From the NCBI GenBank assembly GCA_964016885.1, contig OZ024745.1:106826001-106890000 (forward strand): a stretch of DNA of 64,000 nt, in the 5' to 3' direction. The first letter of the stretch is position 1; each line of letters begins with the position of its first letter. The position numbers were made by a program, and so were the translations under genes. The notes below the pieces were generated by a model. It was not told the origin of the DNA. It searched no databases and saw nothing but the letters and a program-made list of their open reading frames with translations. Of this stretch, positions 4,197 to 56,283 are shown piece after piece. The stretch is from Eledone cirrhosa. Lineage: Eukaryota.

Positions 4197-4425
4197 TGTT
4201 TGACCCCGACGGTAGAGCTCAAGTCGTTTCGACGGCTATTTCCGGACTAAACAGTCTAGAAATAACCGTCGAAACGGCTTCAGCTCTGCTGTCGGCGTCA
4301 AACATTTTCCTATTACCCACTCTACTACCGTAAGTATTGAGTACTCTGGTGTGTTATGGTCCATCTGGTTCCTTACCACACCTCCTTCGTTATATATATA
4401 TAACGAAGGAGGTGTGGTAAGGAAC
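4197..4425 (+). mobile_element. Fold-back element family P1 (palindrome plus tail), with a short inverted tail copy
   Basis: Palindrome of ~110 bp at 4197-4305, tail CCTATTACCCACTCTACTACC..TGAGTACTCTGG..CCTTCGT, then (TA)n and an inverted tail piece at 4401-4425. Confidence 0.8.
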
Positions 4426-4522
4426 ATCTTGTTCAGTCAAACAAAGCCGTACGTTAAAACTACCCACGGCGCAGATTACTCACAACCTCTAACTGAACTA
4501 CCTATAACGATAATTTGTTATC

Positions 4523-4557
<35 letters not shown>

Positions 4558-4717: not shown

Positions 4718-4757
4718 CACACATATATATAATTATTAAGGCCAGTTACGACAATTG

Positions 4758-4921
4758 AGCCATACAAGGAACCTACGTTTCGTTGGCCCAGAGGACGAAC
4801 ATTTTTAACCTGTGTCAGTGGAACTTGGGCCTCCGGACCAACGAAACTTACGTTCCTAGTATGGCTACGAACTTGAGTTGCTCTCGCGTTCTACCTTGGA
4901 TATTTATACTAAGTTATTACC

Positions 4922-4925
<4 letters not shown>
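4758..4925 (+). mobile_element. Fold-back element (distinct family) with half-hammerhead motif
   Basis: Inverted arms AGCCATAC..GTTTCGTTGGCCCAGAGG and CCTCCGGACCAACGAAACTTACGTTCCTAGTATGGCT. Tail contains TGAGTTGCTC. Sits between TA-rich tracts. Confidence 0.55.
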
Positions 4926-4976
<51 letters not shown>

Positions 4977-5130
4977 AGGAAAATGTTTAACCCCGACGGC
5001 AGAGTTCAAGCCGTTTCGACGGCTATTTCTAGAGAGAAATAGCCGTCGAAACGGCTTGAGCTCTACCCTAAGTATTGAGTACTCTGGTGCATTATGGTCA
5101 ATCTGGTTCCTTACCACACCTCCTTCGTTA
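4977..5130 (+). mobile_element. Fold-back element family P1, internally deleted
   Basis: Same palindrome and tail as 4197-4391, with the end of the right arm deleted. Confidence 0.8.
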
Positions 5131-5370: not shown

Positions 5371-5424
5371 TGATAGGGATCAGTTTACTCAGTTGTAGAA
5401 ATGAGATGATAGGGATCCCAGTCC

Positions 5425-5575
5425 CTATCATCTCATTTCTACAGCTGAGTAAACTGGAGCAAATGTGAAATAAAGTGTCTTGCTCAAGGAAACAGCACAT
5501 CACAGGACAGAGAATTGAACTCACAACCTTTCGATTGCAAGCCCAATGCTCTAACCACTAAGCCACGTGCCTTCA
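5425..5575 (-). mobile_element. CORE-like tRNA-derived SINE (family 2)
   Basis: A/B boxes followed by CCTTGAGCAAGACACTTTATTTCACATTTGCTCCAG..CTCAGCTG, which resembles a CORE domain. Confidence 0.75.
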
Positions 5576-5795
5576 CAATCCCTAAATATATATATATATT
5601 TATTTAGGGATTGTAACGTCCAGTTACTATAGGTTCACCAGAGTGAGCACTCGATGCGTACTTTCCAGTAAATATAGAGCTGTAGTACTAAGCAGAGTGT
5701 AATAGTAACACAAATCGCCCTTTTTATATAATAGTAGTAATAATAATAATAATATTAACTGGAATAGCTAAGCCGCTTTACCGATTGATTGTGTT

Positions 5796-6087: not shown

Positions 6088-6278
6088 ACAGGATATATTC
6101 CATTTAGAAGTGACAGCTACATGGCTAGTACTGTTCCATTCGGTGCTGAAGCTAGGCTATCTGATGATTTCACCTCCGAATGAAACAGTACTAGTCCCTT
6201 AAGAAATCTCTTCTAAACGGAATATTATCTCGTAGTTCACCCCCTCCCCCCTCCTCCATCATTTAATGGAATAACATT
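6088..6278 (+). mobile_element. Fold-back element with hammerhead core (family H2)
   Basis: CTGATGA (6161-6167), TTTCACCTCCGAAT, GAAACAGTACTAGTC. A degenerate inverted copy lies at 6088-6150 and the tail ends GGAATAAC before (TA)n. Confidence 0.6.
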
Positions 6279-6292
6279 CTATATATATATAT

Positions 6293-6326
<34 letters not shown>

Positions 6327-6516
6327 TCTACGCATTTATTCTACATATACATATATACGTGTGTGTGTGTGTGTGTAAAATGTTATTCCGTTAAATGATG
6401 GAGGAGGGGGGGGGGGACTACGAGTAAATTACTTAATACTTTGGCGTGTGTGTGTAATCCAGTTATCCATTCGCCGTCGAAACTGAAAGAGCTCAGCCGT
6501 CGGGACCTAATTCCAC

Positions 6517-6562
<46 letters not shown>

Positions 6563-7365: not shown

Positions 7366-8463
7366 AATAATGATTTCATTTATTAGCCACAAGGGCCGAT
7401 TAATAATAATACAAACATCACCTATCAACTACGTGGTCATTTGACCTGCTAGAAATAATAGCCAGTCTTTCGTCAATTGATCATATTGGATAATGTGATC
7501 CTTGATTTACTTGCACACAGGATAATCATGATTGGTAAGACTTATCACATAGGACTACTTGATCAGGGCTCACCAAGGGCTAAACACAAACAACACCCAT
7601 CTAGTCTCTCTCTCTCTCTCTCACTCACACACACACGTTAGTTTGAGGTAGTGGAACGGCTGGTCTTCAGTAGTCAACCCTACTCTAGAAAACTGGAAGT
7701 TGTTTCTTTTAACATAGTAACTAACGAACGGGATAGTGTACACACACACACACATGTGAACGGGGTGGAGAAAGGGACCGTGAGTGAGTGAGTGAGTAAG
7801 AAGGCAACACAAATAAATAAACTTTCACGTTAGCATATATCATTGTTTACTTTTAATCTCGTACAGAGCCTGACCGGTGAGAGTTCAAGCGGTCATACAA
7901 TCATCATGTCCTTTCTTTTATTTCTTCCACCAAACCTCTCGTTTATTTTTATTTAGTTTTCTTTTTTAATTATTAAATGAGAGAAAACAGACACATACGC
8001 CACAACAATAAACACGAACAGTATATATAAACACGAAAAGTATATATACACACGAACAGATATACATTATATATTATCTTATTGGTTTCAGTATACGCAT
8101 ACACACATACATAGACACGAACACTATATATATATACACCAGAAAATTATATATATATATATATATATATACATATGAATGTGTGTATTTCCACTCCTAT
8201 ATTTCGGAGTATTTCATTTTATAATTTTCTAGATCACAATTTAAAAAGTTGTCCACTAAGAAAATGTGTTGAATTTTATCAACACCTACTACCTCCACTC
8301 CCCATGTGAAGACACTTCAATCCTCAACCCCCTCGCCACCCAAGAGAACTATCACTACCACCTCTGATACCCCTGTATATCACAGTAACCACTCCATCCA
8401 TATCAGATGCTCATTTTCAGGCCTCATTGAATGAAGGGAGCATTAATAGAATATATATATATA

Positions 8464-8659
8464 TAGGAACGAGTAGGACCCCGACGGCTGAGCTCAAGCC
8501 GTTTCGACGGCTAATTCTAGACTCAGAATTAGCCGTCGAAACGGCTTGAGCTCAGCCGTCGGGGTCCTACTCGTTCCTATTACCCACTCTACTACCCTAA
8601 GTATTGAGTACTTTGGCGCGTTATGGTCCACCTGGTTCCTTACCACATTTCCTTCGTTA
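8464..8659 (+). mobile_element. Fold-back element family P1 (near-perfect copy)
   Basis: Near-perfect ~117-bp palindrome TAGGAACGAGTAGGACCCCGACGGC...GCCGTCGGGGTCCTACTCGTTCCTA plus a ~78-nt tail, flanked by (TA)n. Confidence 0.85.
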
Positions 8660-8673
8660 TATATATATATATA

Positions 8674-8822
8674 TAATTATTTCTACTTTTGGCACAAGGT
8701 CAGCAATTATCCTAGTGCATTACTGGTACTTTATTTTATCGACCCCGTAAGGATGAAAGGCAAAGTCAACCTCGGCGAGATTTGAAATCAGACCATAAAG
8801 GGCCGTAACTCTATGCTACAAA
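8674..8822 (-). mobile_element. Meta-domain-like SINE, 5'-truncated
   Basis: Matches the family consensus. Confidence 0.8.
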
Positions 8823-9066
8823 AATAATGATTTCATTTATATAATGTTAAGTATATCCGTGTGTGTGTGTATGTATATATATATATATACACACACATAC
8901 AAATGGAAGTACAGCATAATCGAAGCTCTGGCTGCAGCTAAGCTAACGAATGCAATCGGAATGCGCTGCTAAGCACTCAAAAAGGTATTTTACCTTAGAG
9001 TTATAACATTACGTTTAGAGACCTCTGCAAATTGAAGACAGCTACCGGTAAGCCAGCCGCATATGC

Positions 9067-11773: not shown

Positions 11774-11974
11774 ATAATAATAAATTTGAAGACTAAAATC
11801 CAAAGAGGGCTCGACCAGGATAAATATATATCAAATATATAAGAACCGTATAGCAAATATTTACTAAAATAACAGATTAAAGTTTAAGCAAAGAATCGCT
11901 GCCTCCACCCTCAACGGGATCCTCTGAGGGTGGAGGCAGCGATTCTTTGCTTAAACTTTAATCTGTTATTTTAG

Positions 11975-11981
<7 letters not shown>
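11770..11981 (-). mobile_element. Fold-back element (palindrome 11857-11981 plus tail 11770-11856)
   Basis: Near-perfect ~57-bp arms around AACGGGATCCTC. The tail recurs at 6787-6865. Flanked by (TA)n on both sides. Confidence 0.75.
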
Positions 11982-12011
<30 letters not shown>

Positions 12012-12484
12012 TTGTAAGAGGCTTAGCTCTGTGTTTGACCGCTGTATCACGTGATAAATTCCCCCTCCGCCTTTCGGGATTCTATCTCGCGTCCTACGGA
12101 CGTGTTTTGAAACTCTAAATGAGGTATCCTCTTGATAAGTCGGCAAACCTCACAAAAATACTGCATCTCTACGATGTAATGTTTTTGCATAATAGCCACG
12201 AAACTACGTCGTCGAGGATAATGAAGGAATTTAGGTATATTATATCTTTTTATTTATATCTAATGTTTCTTCTTTCTTTATAATGTATTATATAGCTCTG
12301 ATATTGAATCAATCTAATCCATTCAGATTATTTTGTGCCTATTATTCATAGAGCTACAACGGTTAAGGTTGGCACCACACAAATTCAGGGATATATGTGG
12401 GTATATGCATGTATCTGTGTATTTCTTTGTATTGTATATATATATATATATAGAAGTGGTTACACAACAGTTAGTTCACCATAC

Positions 12485-12522
12485 CGAGAACAATTGTTTC
12501 ACCTGAGCGGATCCTCAGCTCG
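12485..12522 (-). ncRNA. Minimal type I hammerhead ribozyme
   Basis: CGAG-CUGAGGA-UCC GCUCA GGU-GAA-ACAAUUGU-U-CUCG. Full core, 4-bp stem I and palindromic stem III (ACAAUUGU). Confidence 0.65.
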
Positions 12523-12534
12523 TAATCCTGATTA

Positions 12535-12572
12535 CCAGCTGAGGATCCGCTAAGGTGAAACAATTGTTCTCG
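12535..12572 (+). ncRNA. Minimal type I hammerhead ribozyme (mirror copy)
   Basis: CCAG-CUGAGGA-UCC GCUAA GGU-GAA-ACAAUUGU-U-CUCG, with one mismatch in stem I. Confidence 0.55.
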
Positions 12573-12678
12573 GTATGGTGAACTAACTGTTGTGTAACCT
12601 CTTCTACCTAACTCGTCCCATGGACTGAGTGCTATACCACTACGGATATTACCTTCCAGTTCTCTCTCTCTCTCTCTC

Positions 12679-12716
<38 letters not shown>

Positions 12717-12768
12717 AAAATGGAACGGGAACAAAAAGGTTTATTAGTTTCACGCTCTTGAGAGTGTG

Positions 12769-12816
<48 letters not shown>

Positions 12817-12829
12817 TAGATATACATTT

Positions 12830-12981
12830 TAAAAGGATTCTGGACGTCGACGGCTGAGCTCCGAACAGTTCCGATCTAGCTGTTGAAACGGGTGGATCTC
12901 AGCCGTCGGGGTCCCGAACCCTTCCTATTACCCATTCTCTGGCGAGTAATGGTCTAACTGCTTTTTACTGCGTCCATTCTG
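12830..12981 (+). mobile_element. Divergent P1-like fold-back element
   Basis: GACGGCTGAG...GAAACGGG..CTCAGCCGTCGGGGTC..CCTATTACCCA. Related to 56161-56283. Confidence 0.65.
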
Positions 12982-14107: not shown

Positions 14108-14148
<41 letters not shown>

Positions 14149-14150
<2 letters not shown>

Positions 14151-14280
14151 GTTATTCCGGGTTGAATCGGAGGTTACCACAGTAAGTAAGGTACTCAATA
14201 CATTGCAGAGTATAAAAGTTTTAATATGGATGAGATTCTACAGGACTAGAACTGTTTCATTCTTTAGAAATCATCAGAAT
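14149..14280 (-). mobile_element. Family H2 element with hammerhead core (14235-14280)
   Basis: Minus strand reads AUU-CUGAUGA-UUUCUAAAGAAU-GAA-ACAG UUCUAGUC CUGU-A-GAAU. Tail contains TGAGTACC and ends GGAATAAC. Lies in (TA)n. Confidence 0.7.
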
Positions 14281-19324: not shown

Positions 19325-19597
19325 CTTTATATGTTCGTTTGACCTAACAGAAATAGCAGTCGAAATGCCTTTGATATCATAGATCTGTTCGATCTGTTCG
19401 ATCAGTTTTGACCTAAGGCTAAGCAACAACAACAACAAACTAAATGAGAACAAGTCCACAGAAATAGACTTGATAGATGGTAGAACACAAAAAAATATCA
19501 AGGCTACATACGTACCTGCCAACCACTAAAAACCCAAACCGGGAGTACCATGAAAAACGGGGCCCCAAAATGGAGAGAAATGAGGGAGAATTTTACA

Positions 19598-23760: not shown

Positions 23761-24249
23761 TTGATAATTATGTAAGTCATAATTAGTACTGGGTGCTTTT
23801 TCTTGTGATGCCTACATGACCACTGTGGGCTGGGTGCTTTTTGCCCACTAGGAATTATTATTTCATGACTTAGAAGGAAAGTCAGTGCCCATGACTATTT
23901 TCAGGAGTCTCCGCGTGTAAGACATCCTTAAAACCAATCCAGAATGCTTGCAAAAGAGAGTTCTGTTAAAGGCCTCCAAGGCCAAGTGCTATTATTAAAG
24001 TAGAAGATGATTAAGTGTCTCATCAAAGTGGGTTATGGCAGAATTTTAACTCAGGGAGCTGAAATAAATAATGAAAATCTGACACTCTAATGACCCTGTT
24101 AGTCCACCCCCCTAGATTAGTATTTTACAGCTGTTGAACTGGTGGAAATTTAGTGGAGAAAAGAATGATACCCAATACAACTAAAAATAACAACAATATC
24201 AAAGATCAATTAATCAGTGTAGTAATAAGTAAGGAAAATTGAAACCTAC

Positions 24250-24722
24250 CAAGCTTGTAGCAGTAGCACTGCTATCCAGACCAACTCGCTTATTTGTTAC
24301 CATAACAATGAGATGTTTATTGTTGACCAATGACCATGCACCTTCGATCTTACAAGTTTGGCACTTATGATCAAACGTCCGTAAGTGAGGATCACCAAAC
24401 AACCCACAGTGTTTGTAAGCCCCTTTCCCTTTGTAAATACACTCGGGGTCTGGTGGGTGCGCAGGCGGTCTTTGTATAGCATTGGTTGTGTTGTAAATAT
24501 CTCCTTCGGAAGCACATTTGTACAAATCCATTTGGCTTCTCACCCGTGACTTTTCAGTGTAATAATCTAGGCTACCTGCACAGCCACGTGTTACTTTGTG
24601 AATGCAGTGCCAGGTCGTTCGCAGAGAAATGCACTTGTGTGAGTCAGAATTTGAGTCCTTGCTTCTGCTTAAATGGTAAGCTGGCCAATGTTTTTGACAC
24701 ATATTCACCTTACATTCTCCAG
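24250..24722 (-). CDS. RGM: Internal coding exon of a Repulsive Guidance Molecule (RGM/hemojuvelin family) gene: RGM N-terminal Cys-rich helical domain plus start of the vWF-D-like domain
   Basis: Translation xGECKVNMCQKHW...KCISLRTTWHCIHKVTRGCAGSLDYY...YKCASEG...HCGLFGDPHLRTFDHKCQTCKIEGAWSLVNNKHLIVMVTN...SSATATSL matches the RGM cysteine pattern and the CGLFGDPHLRTF / TCK.EGAW.L..N / ATATS motifs. Acceptor tttctatttccAG at 24724-24723 (phase 1) and donor GTAGGT at 24249-24244 (phase 0). Length 473 nt. Confidence 0.95.
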
Positions 24723-25318
24723 CTGGAAATAGAAAAAATATTTGATATAAGATAAAATTCGATACTAACTACGACACACTACATATATACTAGCAATCAT
24801 ATATTCTACAGTGTTTATGACTTTTCAGTTAATTTTGAAAGTAAAACAATAATTCAAAGATATTTAGTAGAATTGGTTTTAATTTCAATAAAAGCTCTTT
24901 AAAATGATCAGATATGTATCATGGAATGAGAATCAGGGCTTGTGAGTTGGTGGTATAACAAAATAGAAAAACCTGAATTATTAATTTCTTGCCTCATTAC
25001 AAACATCTATTTTGACAACTTGCATAACAAATATCGGTTCCTGTTGGGGTGAATTTAAAGCAGTAGCAAAAACAAAAAGGGTTATAATTTAGGTAGTTTG
25101 TATTCGTTTTTTTAACACCCTCAGAGTGTAGAAGGGAATAACTATAATAAGTGTAGAAATTCAACCTTCTACAGAAATGGTGATCAGGTTTACATTTAAC
25201 CTATATACAAACATGACAATTTGAATAAACAACCCTACAGCAGACAGAATGACCTGATTATATATGCACACACACACAATCAGACACACACACATATTGT
25301 TTTGAGTGGACTTGTGTG

Positions 25319-31205: not shown

Positions 31206-31208
<3 letters not shown>

Positions 31209-31402
31209 CGAAGGAAATGTGGTAAGGAACCAGGTGGACCATAACGCACCAAAGTACTCAATACTTAGGGTAGTAGAGTGGGTAATAGGAACGAGTAGGA
31301 CCCCGACGGCTGAGCTCAAGCCGTTTCGACGGCTAATTCTGAGTCCAGAATTAGCCGTCGAAACGGCTTGAGCTCAGCCGTCGGGGTCCTACTCGTTCCT
31401 AT
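31206..31402 (-). mobile_element. Fold-back element family P1 (near-perfect copy)
   Basis: Nearly identical to the reverse complement of 8464-8659. Confidence 0.85.
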
Positions 31403-31876
31403 ATATATATATATATATATATACACACAATGATATTAAATAAATGGAAACTATATTTATAAAACCATATTTATTTTATTATATATATTTCTAGGGTACC
31501 AAGACAACATTGGTACGCTTTCATCAGATAAAATACAAAGCTTGTTTTACAAATAGAGACATACCCATGAAAATCATACCTTATCAGTTGGAAATTCACT
31601 GGGTAGTTATAAACGTTTATATTTATCAGACTTCAAACAAATTAAATACTCCTACTTTATATAAATATATATCTATATTCACATATATTTTTATTTGTTT
31701 GACCCGAATTACTTGGTCGTTTTTGTGGCTATGCGGATGATTGTTTAACCATCGTCTCAGTGTGTTTAACCTTTAACGTATGTTGTAGCTCTGGTTCATC
31801 TGAATCATTGAGCGCTTGCCACACATCTCGGAAGTTGTTTTTCGTTCATTCCTAAGCCGAAATACGATTCTCGCTA

Positions 31877-38107: not shown

Positions 38108-38110
<3 letters not shown>

Positions 38111-38303
38111 CGAAGGAGGTGTGGTAAGGAACCAGATGGACCATAACGCACCAGAGTACTCAATACTTAGGGTAGTAGAGTGGGTAATAGGAAAATGTTT
38201 GACTCCGACGGCAGAGCTCAAGCCGTTTCGACGGCTATTTCTGAGTCCAGAAATAGCCGTCGAAACCGCTTGAGCTCTGCCGTCGGGGTCAAACATTTTC
38301 CTA
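38108..38303 (-). mobile_element. Fold-back element family P1
   Basis: Tail followed by a ~117-bp palindrome, flanked by (TA)n. Confidence 0.85.
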
Positions 38304-38612: not shown

Positions 38613-38618
<6 letters not shown>

Positions 38619-38783
38619 AAGTAATTAAGTCAAATATTTCAGATTTGGCTTCGTTAATATTTCTTAAATATTTGACTCAATTACTTTAGTTTACATTACT
38701 CCGGAGTAACCAAAACAACCTGCGTACTTCGTCGAGTGCTCCAATCTGCATACTTAGGTGTCGGTAAACAACAAACATATACT

Positions 38784-49810: not shown

Positions 49811-49957
49811 AATATATATATATATAAATATATAAATATATATATAAATATATATAAATATATCTATAAATATATATATATCTATATATAAATATATATA
49901 TAAATATATATATATATTATATATATATATATATTATATAGTTTTAATATAGAAGAG

Positions 49958-50004
49958 ATTCTACAGGACTAGAACTGTTTCATTCATTAGAAATCATCAG
50001 GAAT
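49958..50004 (-). ncRNA. Complete type I hammerhead ribozyme motif (family H2)
   Basis: AUUC-CUGAUGA-U UUC UAAU GAA U-GAA-ACAG UUCUAGUC CUGU-A/GAAU. Stem I 4 bp, stem II 3 bp plus U.U, stem III 4 bp, GUA cleavage triplet. Confidence 0.75.
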
Positions 50005-50012
50005 ATAAATAT

Positions 50013-53423: not shown

Positions 53424-53740
53424 TATATTAGTAAAAAGGAAAAGGAAATGCTGACAAAATTTTCCTAGTGAAAAATAGTTTAATTTGGAATAAGTATAAA
53501 TTAGTAATAAGTATTAGTTAGTATTCATTTTTAGATTTAAGTTTTTACCGGTTGCGCATCTCAAAATTATTTTTGAAAAGCATAAGAAATGCGCAACCGG
53601 TAGAAACTTATAACTGAATACTAACTAATACTTATTACTAATTTATACTTATTCCTAATTAAACTATTTTTCACTGGGAAAAATTTGTCAGCATTTTCTT
53701 TTCCTTTTTAGCAATATATCACAACTCGTGTGTCACACCT
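53424..53740. mobile_element. Long AT-rich fold-back element (~135-bp arms)
   Basis: AAAAAGGAAAAGGAAATGCTGACAAA...TACCGGTTGCGCAT / ATGCGCAACCGGTA...TTTGTCAGCATTTTCTTTTCCTTTTT. Confidence 0.75.
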
Positions 53741-53774: not shown

Positions 53775-53963
53775 TAGGAACAAGTATGACCCCGACGGCA
53801 GAGCTCAAGGCGTTTCGACGGCTAATTCTGAATTAGCCGTCGAAACGTCTTGAGCCCTGCCGTCGGGGTCATACTTGTTCCTATTACCCACTATACTACC
53901 CTAAGTATTGAGTACTTTGGTGCGTTATGGTCCATCTGGTTCCTTACCACATTTCCTTCGTTA
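53775..53963 (+). mobile_element. Fold-back element family P1
   Basis: Palindrome TAGGAACAAGTATGACCCCGACGGC...GCCGTCGGGGTCATACTTGTTCCTA plus tail. Confidence 0.85.
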
Positions 53964-55970: not shown

Positions 55971-56283
55971 AAACGGCTTGAGCTCTGCCGTCGGAGTCTT
56001 GAACATTTACCTATTACCCACTCTACTACCCTAAGTATTGAGTACTCTGGTGCGTTATGGTCCACCTGGTTCCTTACCACACTTCCTTCGTTATATATAT
56101 ATATATATAACAAAGAGGGTGGACCACAACGCGCCAATACTTAAGGTAGTAGAGTGGGTAATAGGAAAAGAATCAGGACCTCGACGGCTGAGTTCCTGTC
56201 GTTTCGACAGCTAGATCCGAATCTAGTTCGGATCTAGCTGTCGAAACGGCAGGAACTCAGCCGCCGGCGTCCTGACTCTTTTC
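55971..56283. mobile_element. Two tail-to-tail P1-family elements (55971-56092 plus; 56109-56283 minus, variant palindrome)
   Basis: P1 right arm and tail, (TA)n, a deleted inverted tail, then palindrome GAAAAGAATCAGGAC...GTCCTGACTCTTTTC. Confidence 0.75.

Follow-up and report, generated by a model that had tools for sequence, protein, structure and literature searches.

A 64,000-nucleotide stretch of Eledone cirrhosa DNA (the window), AT-rich and microsatellite-rich animal DNA, contains a perfect palindrome, here called P1, in which both strands carry the motifs of one half of a hammerhead ribozyme. The locus raises the question of how such a palindrome was made and what became of the catalytic half. 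A first-pass annotation had proposed that a cDNA folded back at the stem II hairpin of a hammerhead and copied itself, leaving a mirror arm in place of the CTGANGA strand.

P1 is likely a stripped-down passenger of Penelope-like elements (PLEs), a palindrome with a one-sided tail, ~190 bases in all, set in (TA)n of animal DNA. Derivation from a PLE is very probable. The fuller account, in which P1 is a non-autonomous PLE that arose from the 3' end of a Hydra-like PLE and kept its GAAA, stem III and GTC half, is the best explanation and a reasonably probable one. P1 would then be a minimal, non-autonomous form of an already known PLE-type element, the minimal form being what is new. The origin of PLE inverted ends and tails is still open according to PMC11167929 and PMC8557442. 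Since P1 is only 190 nt long and has thousands of young copies, it allows PLE end formation to be tested from sequence alone; rare mirrored changes, the orientation of the centre and the two 3' ends could separate self-priming, dual priming and later gene conversion. Likenesses to published Naiad and Hydra sequences were judged by eye and carry no statistics.

Layout of the P1 element

The palindrome, with 55-bp arms, spans 8464-8580, is followed on one side by a 77-nt tail and is set in (TA)n. The left (TA)n run (8451-8465), likely the insertion target, leads into the left arm (8464-8518, - strand), which is the exact reverse complement of the right arm and ends at a short 3' end, 41 nt past CGAAAC. 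Between the arms is an unpaired centre of 6 nt (8519-8524, +), whose length and orientation are identical in copies 31401 and 38303. The right arm (8525-8580, +) contains GAAA at 8538-8541, a likely homologue of the GAAA in the hammerhead core at PLE 3' ends, a stem III-like hairpin at 8541-8559 (ACGGCT/AGCCGT, 5-6 bp, loop TGAGCTC), a GTC triplet at 8558-8560 and the G-rich GGGGTC at 8561-8566, by position the 3' strand of stem I, which has no core-bearing partner strand (all on the + strand). A central hairpin with a 6-nt loop occupies 8506-8537. The tail (8581-8657, +) carries a hairpin of its own, ACTC...TGAGTAC (8586-8611, +), and ends 121 nt past CGAAAC at the right (TA)n run (8658-8675). 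The right-arm motifs and central hairpin of the first-pass annotation are thus where it had placed them, and CTGANGA, which it had reported missing, is found on neither strand of P1 when all CTGANGA sites of the window are listed.

The heptamer GACGGCT/AGCCGTC occurs six times within 118 nt of P1. The same heptamer supplies a strand of stem II and a strand of stem III, so that a competing hairpin, AGCCGT-CGAA-ACGGCT, can form. The predicted fold of the RNA is a single 55-bp hairpin of -128.3 kcal/mol (z -16.9), and none of 200 shuffled sequences was equally stable. P1 is not an assembly artefact, as raw reads of two runs span both arms and the centre and a contig from a third run covers 8458-8610.

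Copies in the window and abundance in reads

A BLAST search of the window with P1 recovered ten related copies, P1 itself included, and one weak further match at 19348. A near-identical copy (31401; 99%) lies at 31208-31399 (-). Second and third subfamilies are represented by 53775 (53775-53963, +), which has the shortest centre at 19 nt, and 38303 (38110-38301, -), which has the same centre as 31401. Copy 4202 (4198-4390, +) has a 34-nt centre and a shorter left arm, and another at 4977-5128 (+) has an internal deletion in the right arm. The copy at 55972-56091 (+) is cut short at its 5' end inside GAAAC and has an intact tail; it lies tail to tail with copy 56281 (56110-56283, -), a member of a diverged subfamily with arms matching those of 8464 at 33/46 positions and each other at 40/46. 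A further diverged copy, with its left arm partly deleted, is at 12833-12981 (+). The relative at 6466-6519 (6469, +) is unfolded: it has a single arm, stops at the short end (+42) and has no CTGANGA upstream. A separate 122-nt segment between TA runs at 4403-4524 (-), tail to tail with 4202, has no more in common with P1 than the final 23 nt of the tail.

At 80% likeness, 26,908 of the 12.5 million reads in one raw-read run and 27,780 of the 12.8 million in another fall on P1 (~0.2%). There were 22,589 contigs on P1 in a run with the same organism label and six in a run from another organism. The reads are of the reduced-representation type, from which a copy number of 10^4-10^5 is only a rough inference. 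Reads joining 8675 back to 8452 through the TA run numbered 98 and 77. Read ends at 8516 and 8527 sit on AATT and were rejected as biology in favour of a restriction-library effect (the enzyme being inferred). Pattern scans of contig collections matched 0, 0 and 15 viral, four metagenome and 0 and 0 genome loci; these 19 loci were taken as chance since the matches are at most 29 nt and have no TA run.

Likely hammerhead origin of the right arm

The right arm is probably the GAAA, stem III and cleavage half of a type I hammerhead, and there is good reason to think that the GAAA in particular comes from a hammerhead. The claim of a half-hammerhead draws its strength from positional homology, both to neighbouring elements that have the two core halves and, by eye, to the ends of Hydra-clade PLEs; the direct case is thin, with no core strand and no stem I partner, and the stem III covariation that might have accompanied it was not seen. 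Two neighbours matter most here. Sister element 14277 (14148-14278, -) has CTGATGA, stem II, GAAA, GTC and the tail hairpin, with the 5' strand of its stem I cut off by (TA)n, and sister palindrome 12452 with its tail (12453-12665, +) has both core halves in each arm and a centre ~12 nt upstream of the core. The tail hairpin, ACTC...TGAGT(A/G)C, follows GAAA by 48 nt in P1, 47 nt in 14277 and 54 nt in 12452, although the motif was defined after seeing these sequences and its shuffle control (0/100) is therefore partly circular. Alignment of the P1 region after GTC to the tail of 14277 beat 1994 of 2000 shuffles, this being one of eight targets tried; the other seven, 12452 included (796/2000), were not significant. 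In Hydra-2_Amil and Hydra-2_Ajap (PMC8557442 File S7, by eye) a like hairpin lies 56 and 51 nt after the GAAA of a canonical type I hammerhead, with GCTC/GAGC replacing ACTC/GAGT. Among five of six Hydra 3' ends inspected by eye, two have the tail hairpin at 51-56 nt and a third has a looser, closer one.

P1 itself has the GAAA, a stem III closed by A-U and an NUH triplet; among 14 distinct arms the A-U pair is found in 13 and C-G in all 14. None of the six stem III pairs changes on both sides across these 14 arms, so the covariation across subfamilies on which the first-pass annotation had staked its reading did not appear, the sequences being few and the power low. The sixth pair is broken in 11 of the 14. 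A core strand CUGANGA before stem II is absent from all copies in the window and from the 24 of 790 read loose ends that were listed, and no stem I partner is found just before the core position, the mirror arm being the sole complement of GGGGTC. CTGCTGG in a loose end of a diverged read class was rejected as a core, as it lacks a stem I partner and has four of six core letters, easily had by chance. The idea that CTATTA, at the end of the arm, is a decayed core was dropped for want of a stem II partner. Rfam gave no hammerhead at gathering score anywhere in the window and none on the sister elements; on P1 its sole match was a fragment of Hammerhead_3 with an E-value of 8.4. At E-value level over 1-42000, microsatellite matches dominate the 150 of 323 rows listed.

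The motifs might instead be a chance by-product of the heptamer within a PLE-derived palindrome, each subfamily having one palindromic master. The six heptamer occurrences are consistent with this, as are the pairing rates, 85% of cells for the competing CGAA hairpin and 75% for stem III, neither of which covaries. It leaves unexplained, however, the 47-54 nt spacing to the tail hairpin in core-bearing elements, and with the evidence on masters considered below it would seem improbable.

A different ancestry, in a Naiad-type PLE 3' UTR, would place GAAA upstream of CTGATGA, with the core half having decayed downstream and never having been removed by a fold. Octopus Naiads target (TA)n and, by eye, carry GTCGAAAC, a hairpin with a 7-nt TGATATC loop, GGGG, and CTGATGA 23 nt after GAAA. 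In PMC8557442 (Files S1 and S5) Naiad 3' UTRs appear under 'HHR_half_core', with a (TA)n target in cephalopods and GTCGAAAC ~105-120 nt from the 3' end. Copy 56281 has CTGA 25 nt after GAAA, and a weak P1 look-alike at 60847-61010 (-; 60948) has CTGATGA 44 nt downstream of GAAA. CTGA is nevertheless found at that place in only one of seven copies inspected, the likeness of 60948 is matched by 6-39 of 500 shuffles (the four best of eight queries), and the tail of P1 matches elements in which the core precedes GAAA, the opposite of the Naiad order. A Naiad origin is accordingly a minor candidate of low probability, and the upstream-core, Hydra-like ancestry is preferred.

The Naiads themselves show an unusual arrangement. 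By eye, seven Naiad 3' UTRs in File S5 (three from Acropora, one from Morbakka, two from Octopus and one more) contain every hammerhead block, arranged as cleavage site, GAAA and then CUGAUGA; stems I and III covary between species, the pairing having been checked in four. The strand before GAAA pairs with an upstream strand and not with the strand that follows the core. The arrangement is similar to type SGC of PMC10085705, and the authors of PMC8557442 list Naiads as without canonical hammerheads; the order of the Naiad hammerhead blocks may be more novel than P1 itself.

If the right arm is a hammerhead relic, it is predicted to be inactive, since stem III does not form in the whole P1 RNA (pair probability 0.0), and P1 would be unable to cut itself.

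The centre of the palindrome and the position of the fold

The proposal that the fold-back was centred on a native stem II fared less well. The spacing of the two GTCGAAAC motifs across the centre was 19, 24, 26, 26, 26, 31 and 34 nt in the seven copies measured, and the P1 loops read as the remainder of a longer left arm. Loose ends that lengthen the right strand before 8524, seen in 882 reads (X13) and one tail-anchored contig (X6), are AT-rich. Mirror-form loose ends were found in 80 contigs of X1 (agreement 0.49-0.58); compared by eye, X1 and X6 have the same letter at 22 of 26 positions. Neither CTGANGA nor a GACGGCT partner was present in the 38-44 nt before GAAA in the extended loose ends of three runs. 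The centre varying in length and the extended forms having no stem II partner, the central hairpin is mostly a product of the mirroring.

Several observations favour a native type I stem II at which cDNA fold-back swapped the CTGANGA strand for the mirror arm. The fragment 8506-8572 folds as stem II, GAA and stem III (z -4.7; stem III pair probabilities 0.63-1.0), the same stretch as cDNA is a strong hairpin (z -5.7), and another family, at 4758-4866, likewise has its centre immediately before a GAAAC. File S2 of PMC8557442 includes stems II of 6-9 bp and loops up to ~35 nt, so that a core could lie beyond the 44 nt seen. Against this stand the 19-34 nt range of the centre over seven of seven copies, the further-reaching AT-rich ends with neither partner nor core in three runs (one of them tail-anchored, in the single X6 contig), and the absence of any loose end at ~8505, where an unfolded progenitor would be expected to depart, among the 24 of 790 listed. 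Fold-back at a native stem II is thus doubtful, and the full account with strand replacement at that hairpin rather more so.

An unfolded progenitor with CTGANGA, which the fold-back account had called for, was found neither in the window nor among these 24 loose ends. A rare one could still exist, as only those 24 were listed and the smallest raw-run classes among them held 843 and 816 reads. The diverged read class departs from the reference at 8530 in 1492 and 1473 reads, with a median of ~80 loose letters of which 30 were seen; its upstream motif was not found in the window.

Arm identity within and between copies

The first-pass annotation had further claimed that arms match within each copy while differing between copies, and that the mirror arm is therefore regenerated at each insertion or homogenised. 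The three arm variants it quoted were located in copies 8464/31401, 38303 and 53775. In five of six full copies the left arm is matched best by the right arm of the same copy, although two of these five cases are ties, 8464 and 31401 being identical. In the sixth, copy 4202, the left arm matches its own right arm at 37/46 positions and that of 38303 at 39/46. The variants are also common in reads (G8471A 1972/4415, G8476T 1320/4457, each with more than 180 start places), although these counts show frequency and not mirroring, since single-arm reads map to either arm. What stands is that arms have been homogenised at least once per subfamily, whereas the quoted variants proved to be common subfamily markers. 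The frequency of the variants would fit the one palindromic master per subfamily that accompanies the heptamer explanation, but at least four subfamilies need repeated arm-to-arm copying.

Excluding the last column and the end of 4202 that TA has replaced, 13 changes in six copies affect a single arm, and at one site both arms are altered but not alike. No mirrored change private to one copy could be demonstrated in the window, several in 56281 being either private or shared. Copies 31401 and 38303 differ at 7/46 arm positions yet share a lopsided centre, which indicates that the centre is inherited while the arms change together. Going by this pattern in the sequences, the simplest account of the shared centre would be that an arm is re-made at each retrotransposition, although occasional conversion in master copies also fits. 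Regeneration of an arm at each insertion is plausible, and the re-making of one arm in every retrotransposition cycle is slightly favoured.

Probable derivation from Penelope-like elements

P1 has the form of an inverted 5'-truncated copy lying head to head with a direct copy, with a tail at a single end. Its two 3' ends, at +41 (short arm) and +121 (tailed arm) from CGAAAC, both meet (TA)n, and sister families likewise have two, at 49/126, 51/83 and 48/99-112 nt from [CT]GAAAC. Both ends adjoin (TA)n in copies 8464, 31401, 38303 and 4202; 2.3% of non-TA positions are at a TA-run edge. Among the reads, most 3' loose ends of the leading classes continue into (TA)n (3711 and 3949 reads). There is one clear case of 5' truncation with a fixed 3' end, 55972, though a later deletion would look alike. 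No PLE reading frame was identified in the window among the ORFs of 1-44000, one of which was scanned.

PLE ends as described in PMC8557442 similarly have an inverted 5'-truncated copy beside a direct copy, a tail at one end and a bias to (TA)n. P1 shares the (TA)n target, the inverted truncated copy and the one-end tail with the EN+ PLEs of the Hydra clade (Craig et al, 2021, PMC8557442), in which GAAA lies some 50-130 nt from the 3' end, as in P1; the inverted copy is at the 5' end, and in Penelope-13_HM the hammerhead is found on both strands. Unlike Hydra PLEs, P1 has no ORF, is 190 nt in total and lacks CTGANGA, and its stem III, which has a 7-nt loop, exceeds most of those in File S2 in length. 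Its tail is 77-80 nt, against 30-40 nt in published PLEs. The inverted pLTRs of Adineta Penelope elements (Arkhipova et al, 2013, PMC3846280) are also head-to-head repeats with a junction palindrome and an optional tail; they flank low-copy, ORF-bearing elements, however, whereas in P1 the inverted pair is the entire element and is very abundant. Non-LTR retrozymes (PMC7761336; bioRxiv 10.64898/2026.07.22.740005) are small, non-coding, related to type I hammerheads and thought to be moved by PLEs, but are tandem direct repeats with complete ribozymes, and P1 is a dispersed inverted pair with half a core.

The palindrome taken alone reads TA-arm-arm-TA, and could suggest a MITE (Tc1/mariner-like, with a TA target), in which the repeated heptamers might serve as transposase sites, or else a rolling-hairpin element. 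The tail, however, lies outside the palindrome and accompanies it in seven of seven two-armed copies aligned, and the 5'-truncated copy retains it; the orientation of the centre is constant in three of three comparable copies, with no flipped loop among 40 of 246 variants listed. Because the tail always travels with the palindrome, either kind of element is very improbable here.

On the preferred Penelope-like reading, a PLE protein supplied from elsewhere would bind the P1 tail, nick (TA)n and reverse-transcribe the RNA from the far end. The mirror arm may arise at that stage, by self-priming or through the priming of a second cDNA at the near end, on the opposite strand. An arm made during reverse transcription would carry any change of the source right arm into both daughter arms, with the centre inherited. 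The CTGANGA half would have been lost by 5' truncation upstream of GAAA, not necessarily at stem II, and the P1 ribozyme would be both dead and dispensable. Head-to-head PLE junctions carry palindromes, for which self-priming was proposed in 2013 (PMC3846280), and according to PMC11167929 the PLE tail lies between two reverse transcription start sites, cutting and extension involve both strands of the target, and in vitro the process can do without hammerhead cleavage.

Sister elements and other palindromes

The left arm of 12453-12665 passes a type I hammerhead descriptor. The strict descriptor was passed at 12518, at 50000 and at 31527, the last probably a chance match, and failed by 14277 and 6161. 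The elements at 6095-6279, 14148-14278 (-) and 49935-50008 (-) are a single family in three states, one folded with CTGATGA in the loop and two unfolded and cut right before CTGATGA, of which one is tailed and one tailless. The palindrome at 4735-4924 is tailed and centred upstream of GAAAC, with a 35-nt unmirrored centre; kinship of P1 with this 4758 family was rejected as not significant (83-198 of 500 shuffles). Across the sister families the fold falls upstream of the core, on it or downstream of it, an arrangement suggesting that spread does not depend on ribozyme activity, in line with the in vitro result of PMC11167929.

A bolder reading, held only tentatively, is that P1 and the sister palindromes form a class of Penelope parasites shaped as hairpins, which at each jump rebuild an arm from its partner, have shed the catalytic ribozyme half and give the genome tens of thousands of self-contained, perfect dsRNA hairpins. 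If so, they would be a natural record of PLE second-strand making and a major ADAR substrate in cephalopods. In an octopus host, such palindromes could help explain the high dsRNA load and hyper-editing described in PMC5625713. No description of minimal palindromic PLE derivatives in cephalopods was found in full-text searches of mostly non-subscription papers, and the family may already be catalogued in Repbase or Dfam; 'palindrom' and 'ribozyme' are absent from the main-text passages of a 2026 Octopus vulgaris repeat annotation (PMC13282606).

In the segment 5827-5945 (-), CTGAAGA, a 4-bp stem and CGAAACGTC make up a minimal hammerhead core, which lies ~100 nt from a (TA)n run; a 59-nt 3' piece of the segment recurs at 12713-12771. 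Hairpins like that of the P1 tail, with no GAAAC upstream, are found at 8973-9001 (-), 31788-31816 and 5633-5651 and could be what is left of further truncated PLE ends. The window has other long palindromes, at 11857-11981, 38613-38692, 53424-53719 and 5381-5456, in which no hammerhead motif is clear.

Genomic setting

The window also contains an exon of an RGM (repulsive guidance molecule) gene at 24217-24768 (-) and part of a tRNA-like SINE at 5502-5572. Between 44000 and 53000 there are ~9 kb of nearly pure TA/CA microsatellite, with GC down to 0.6%.
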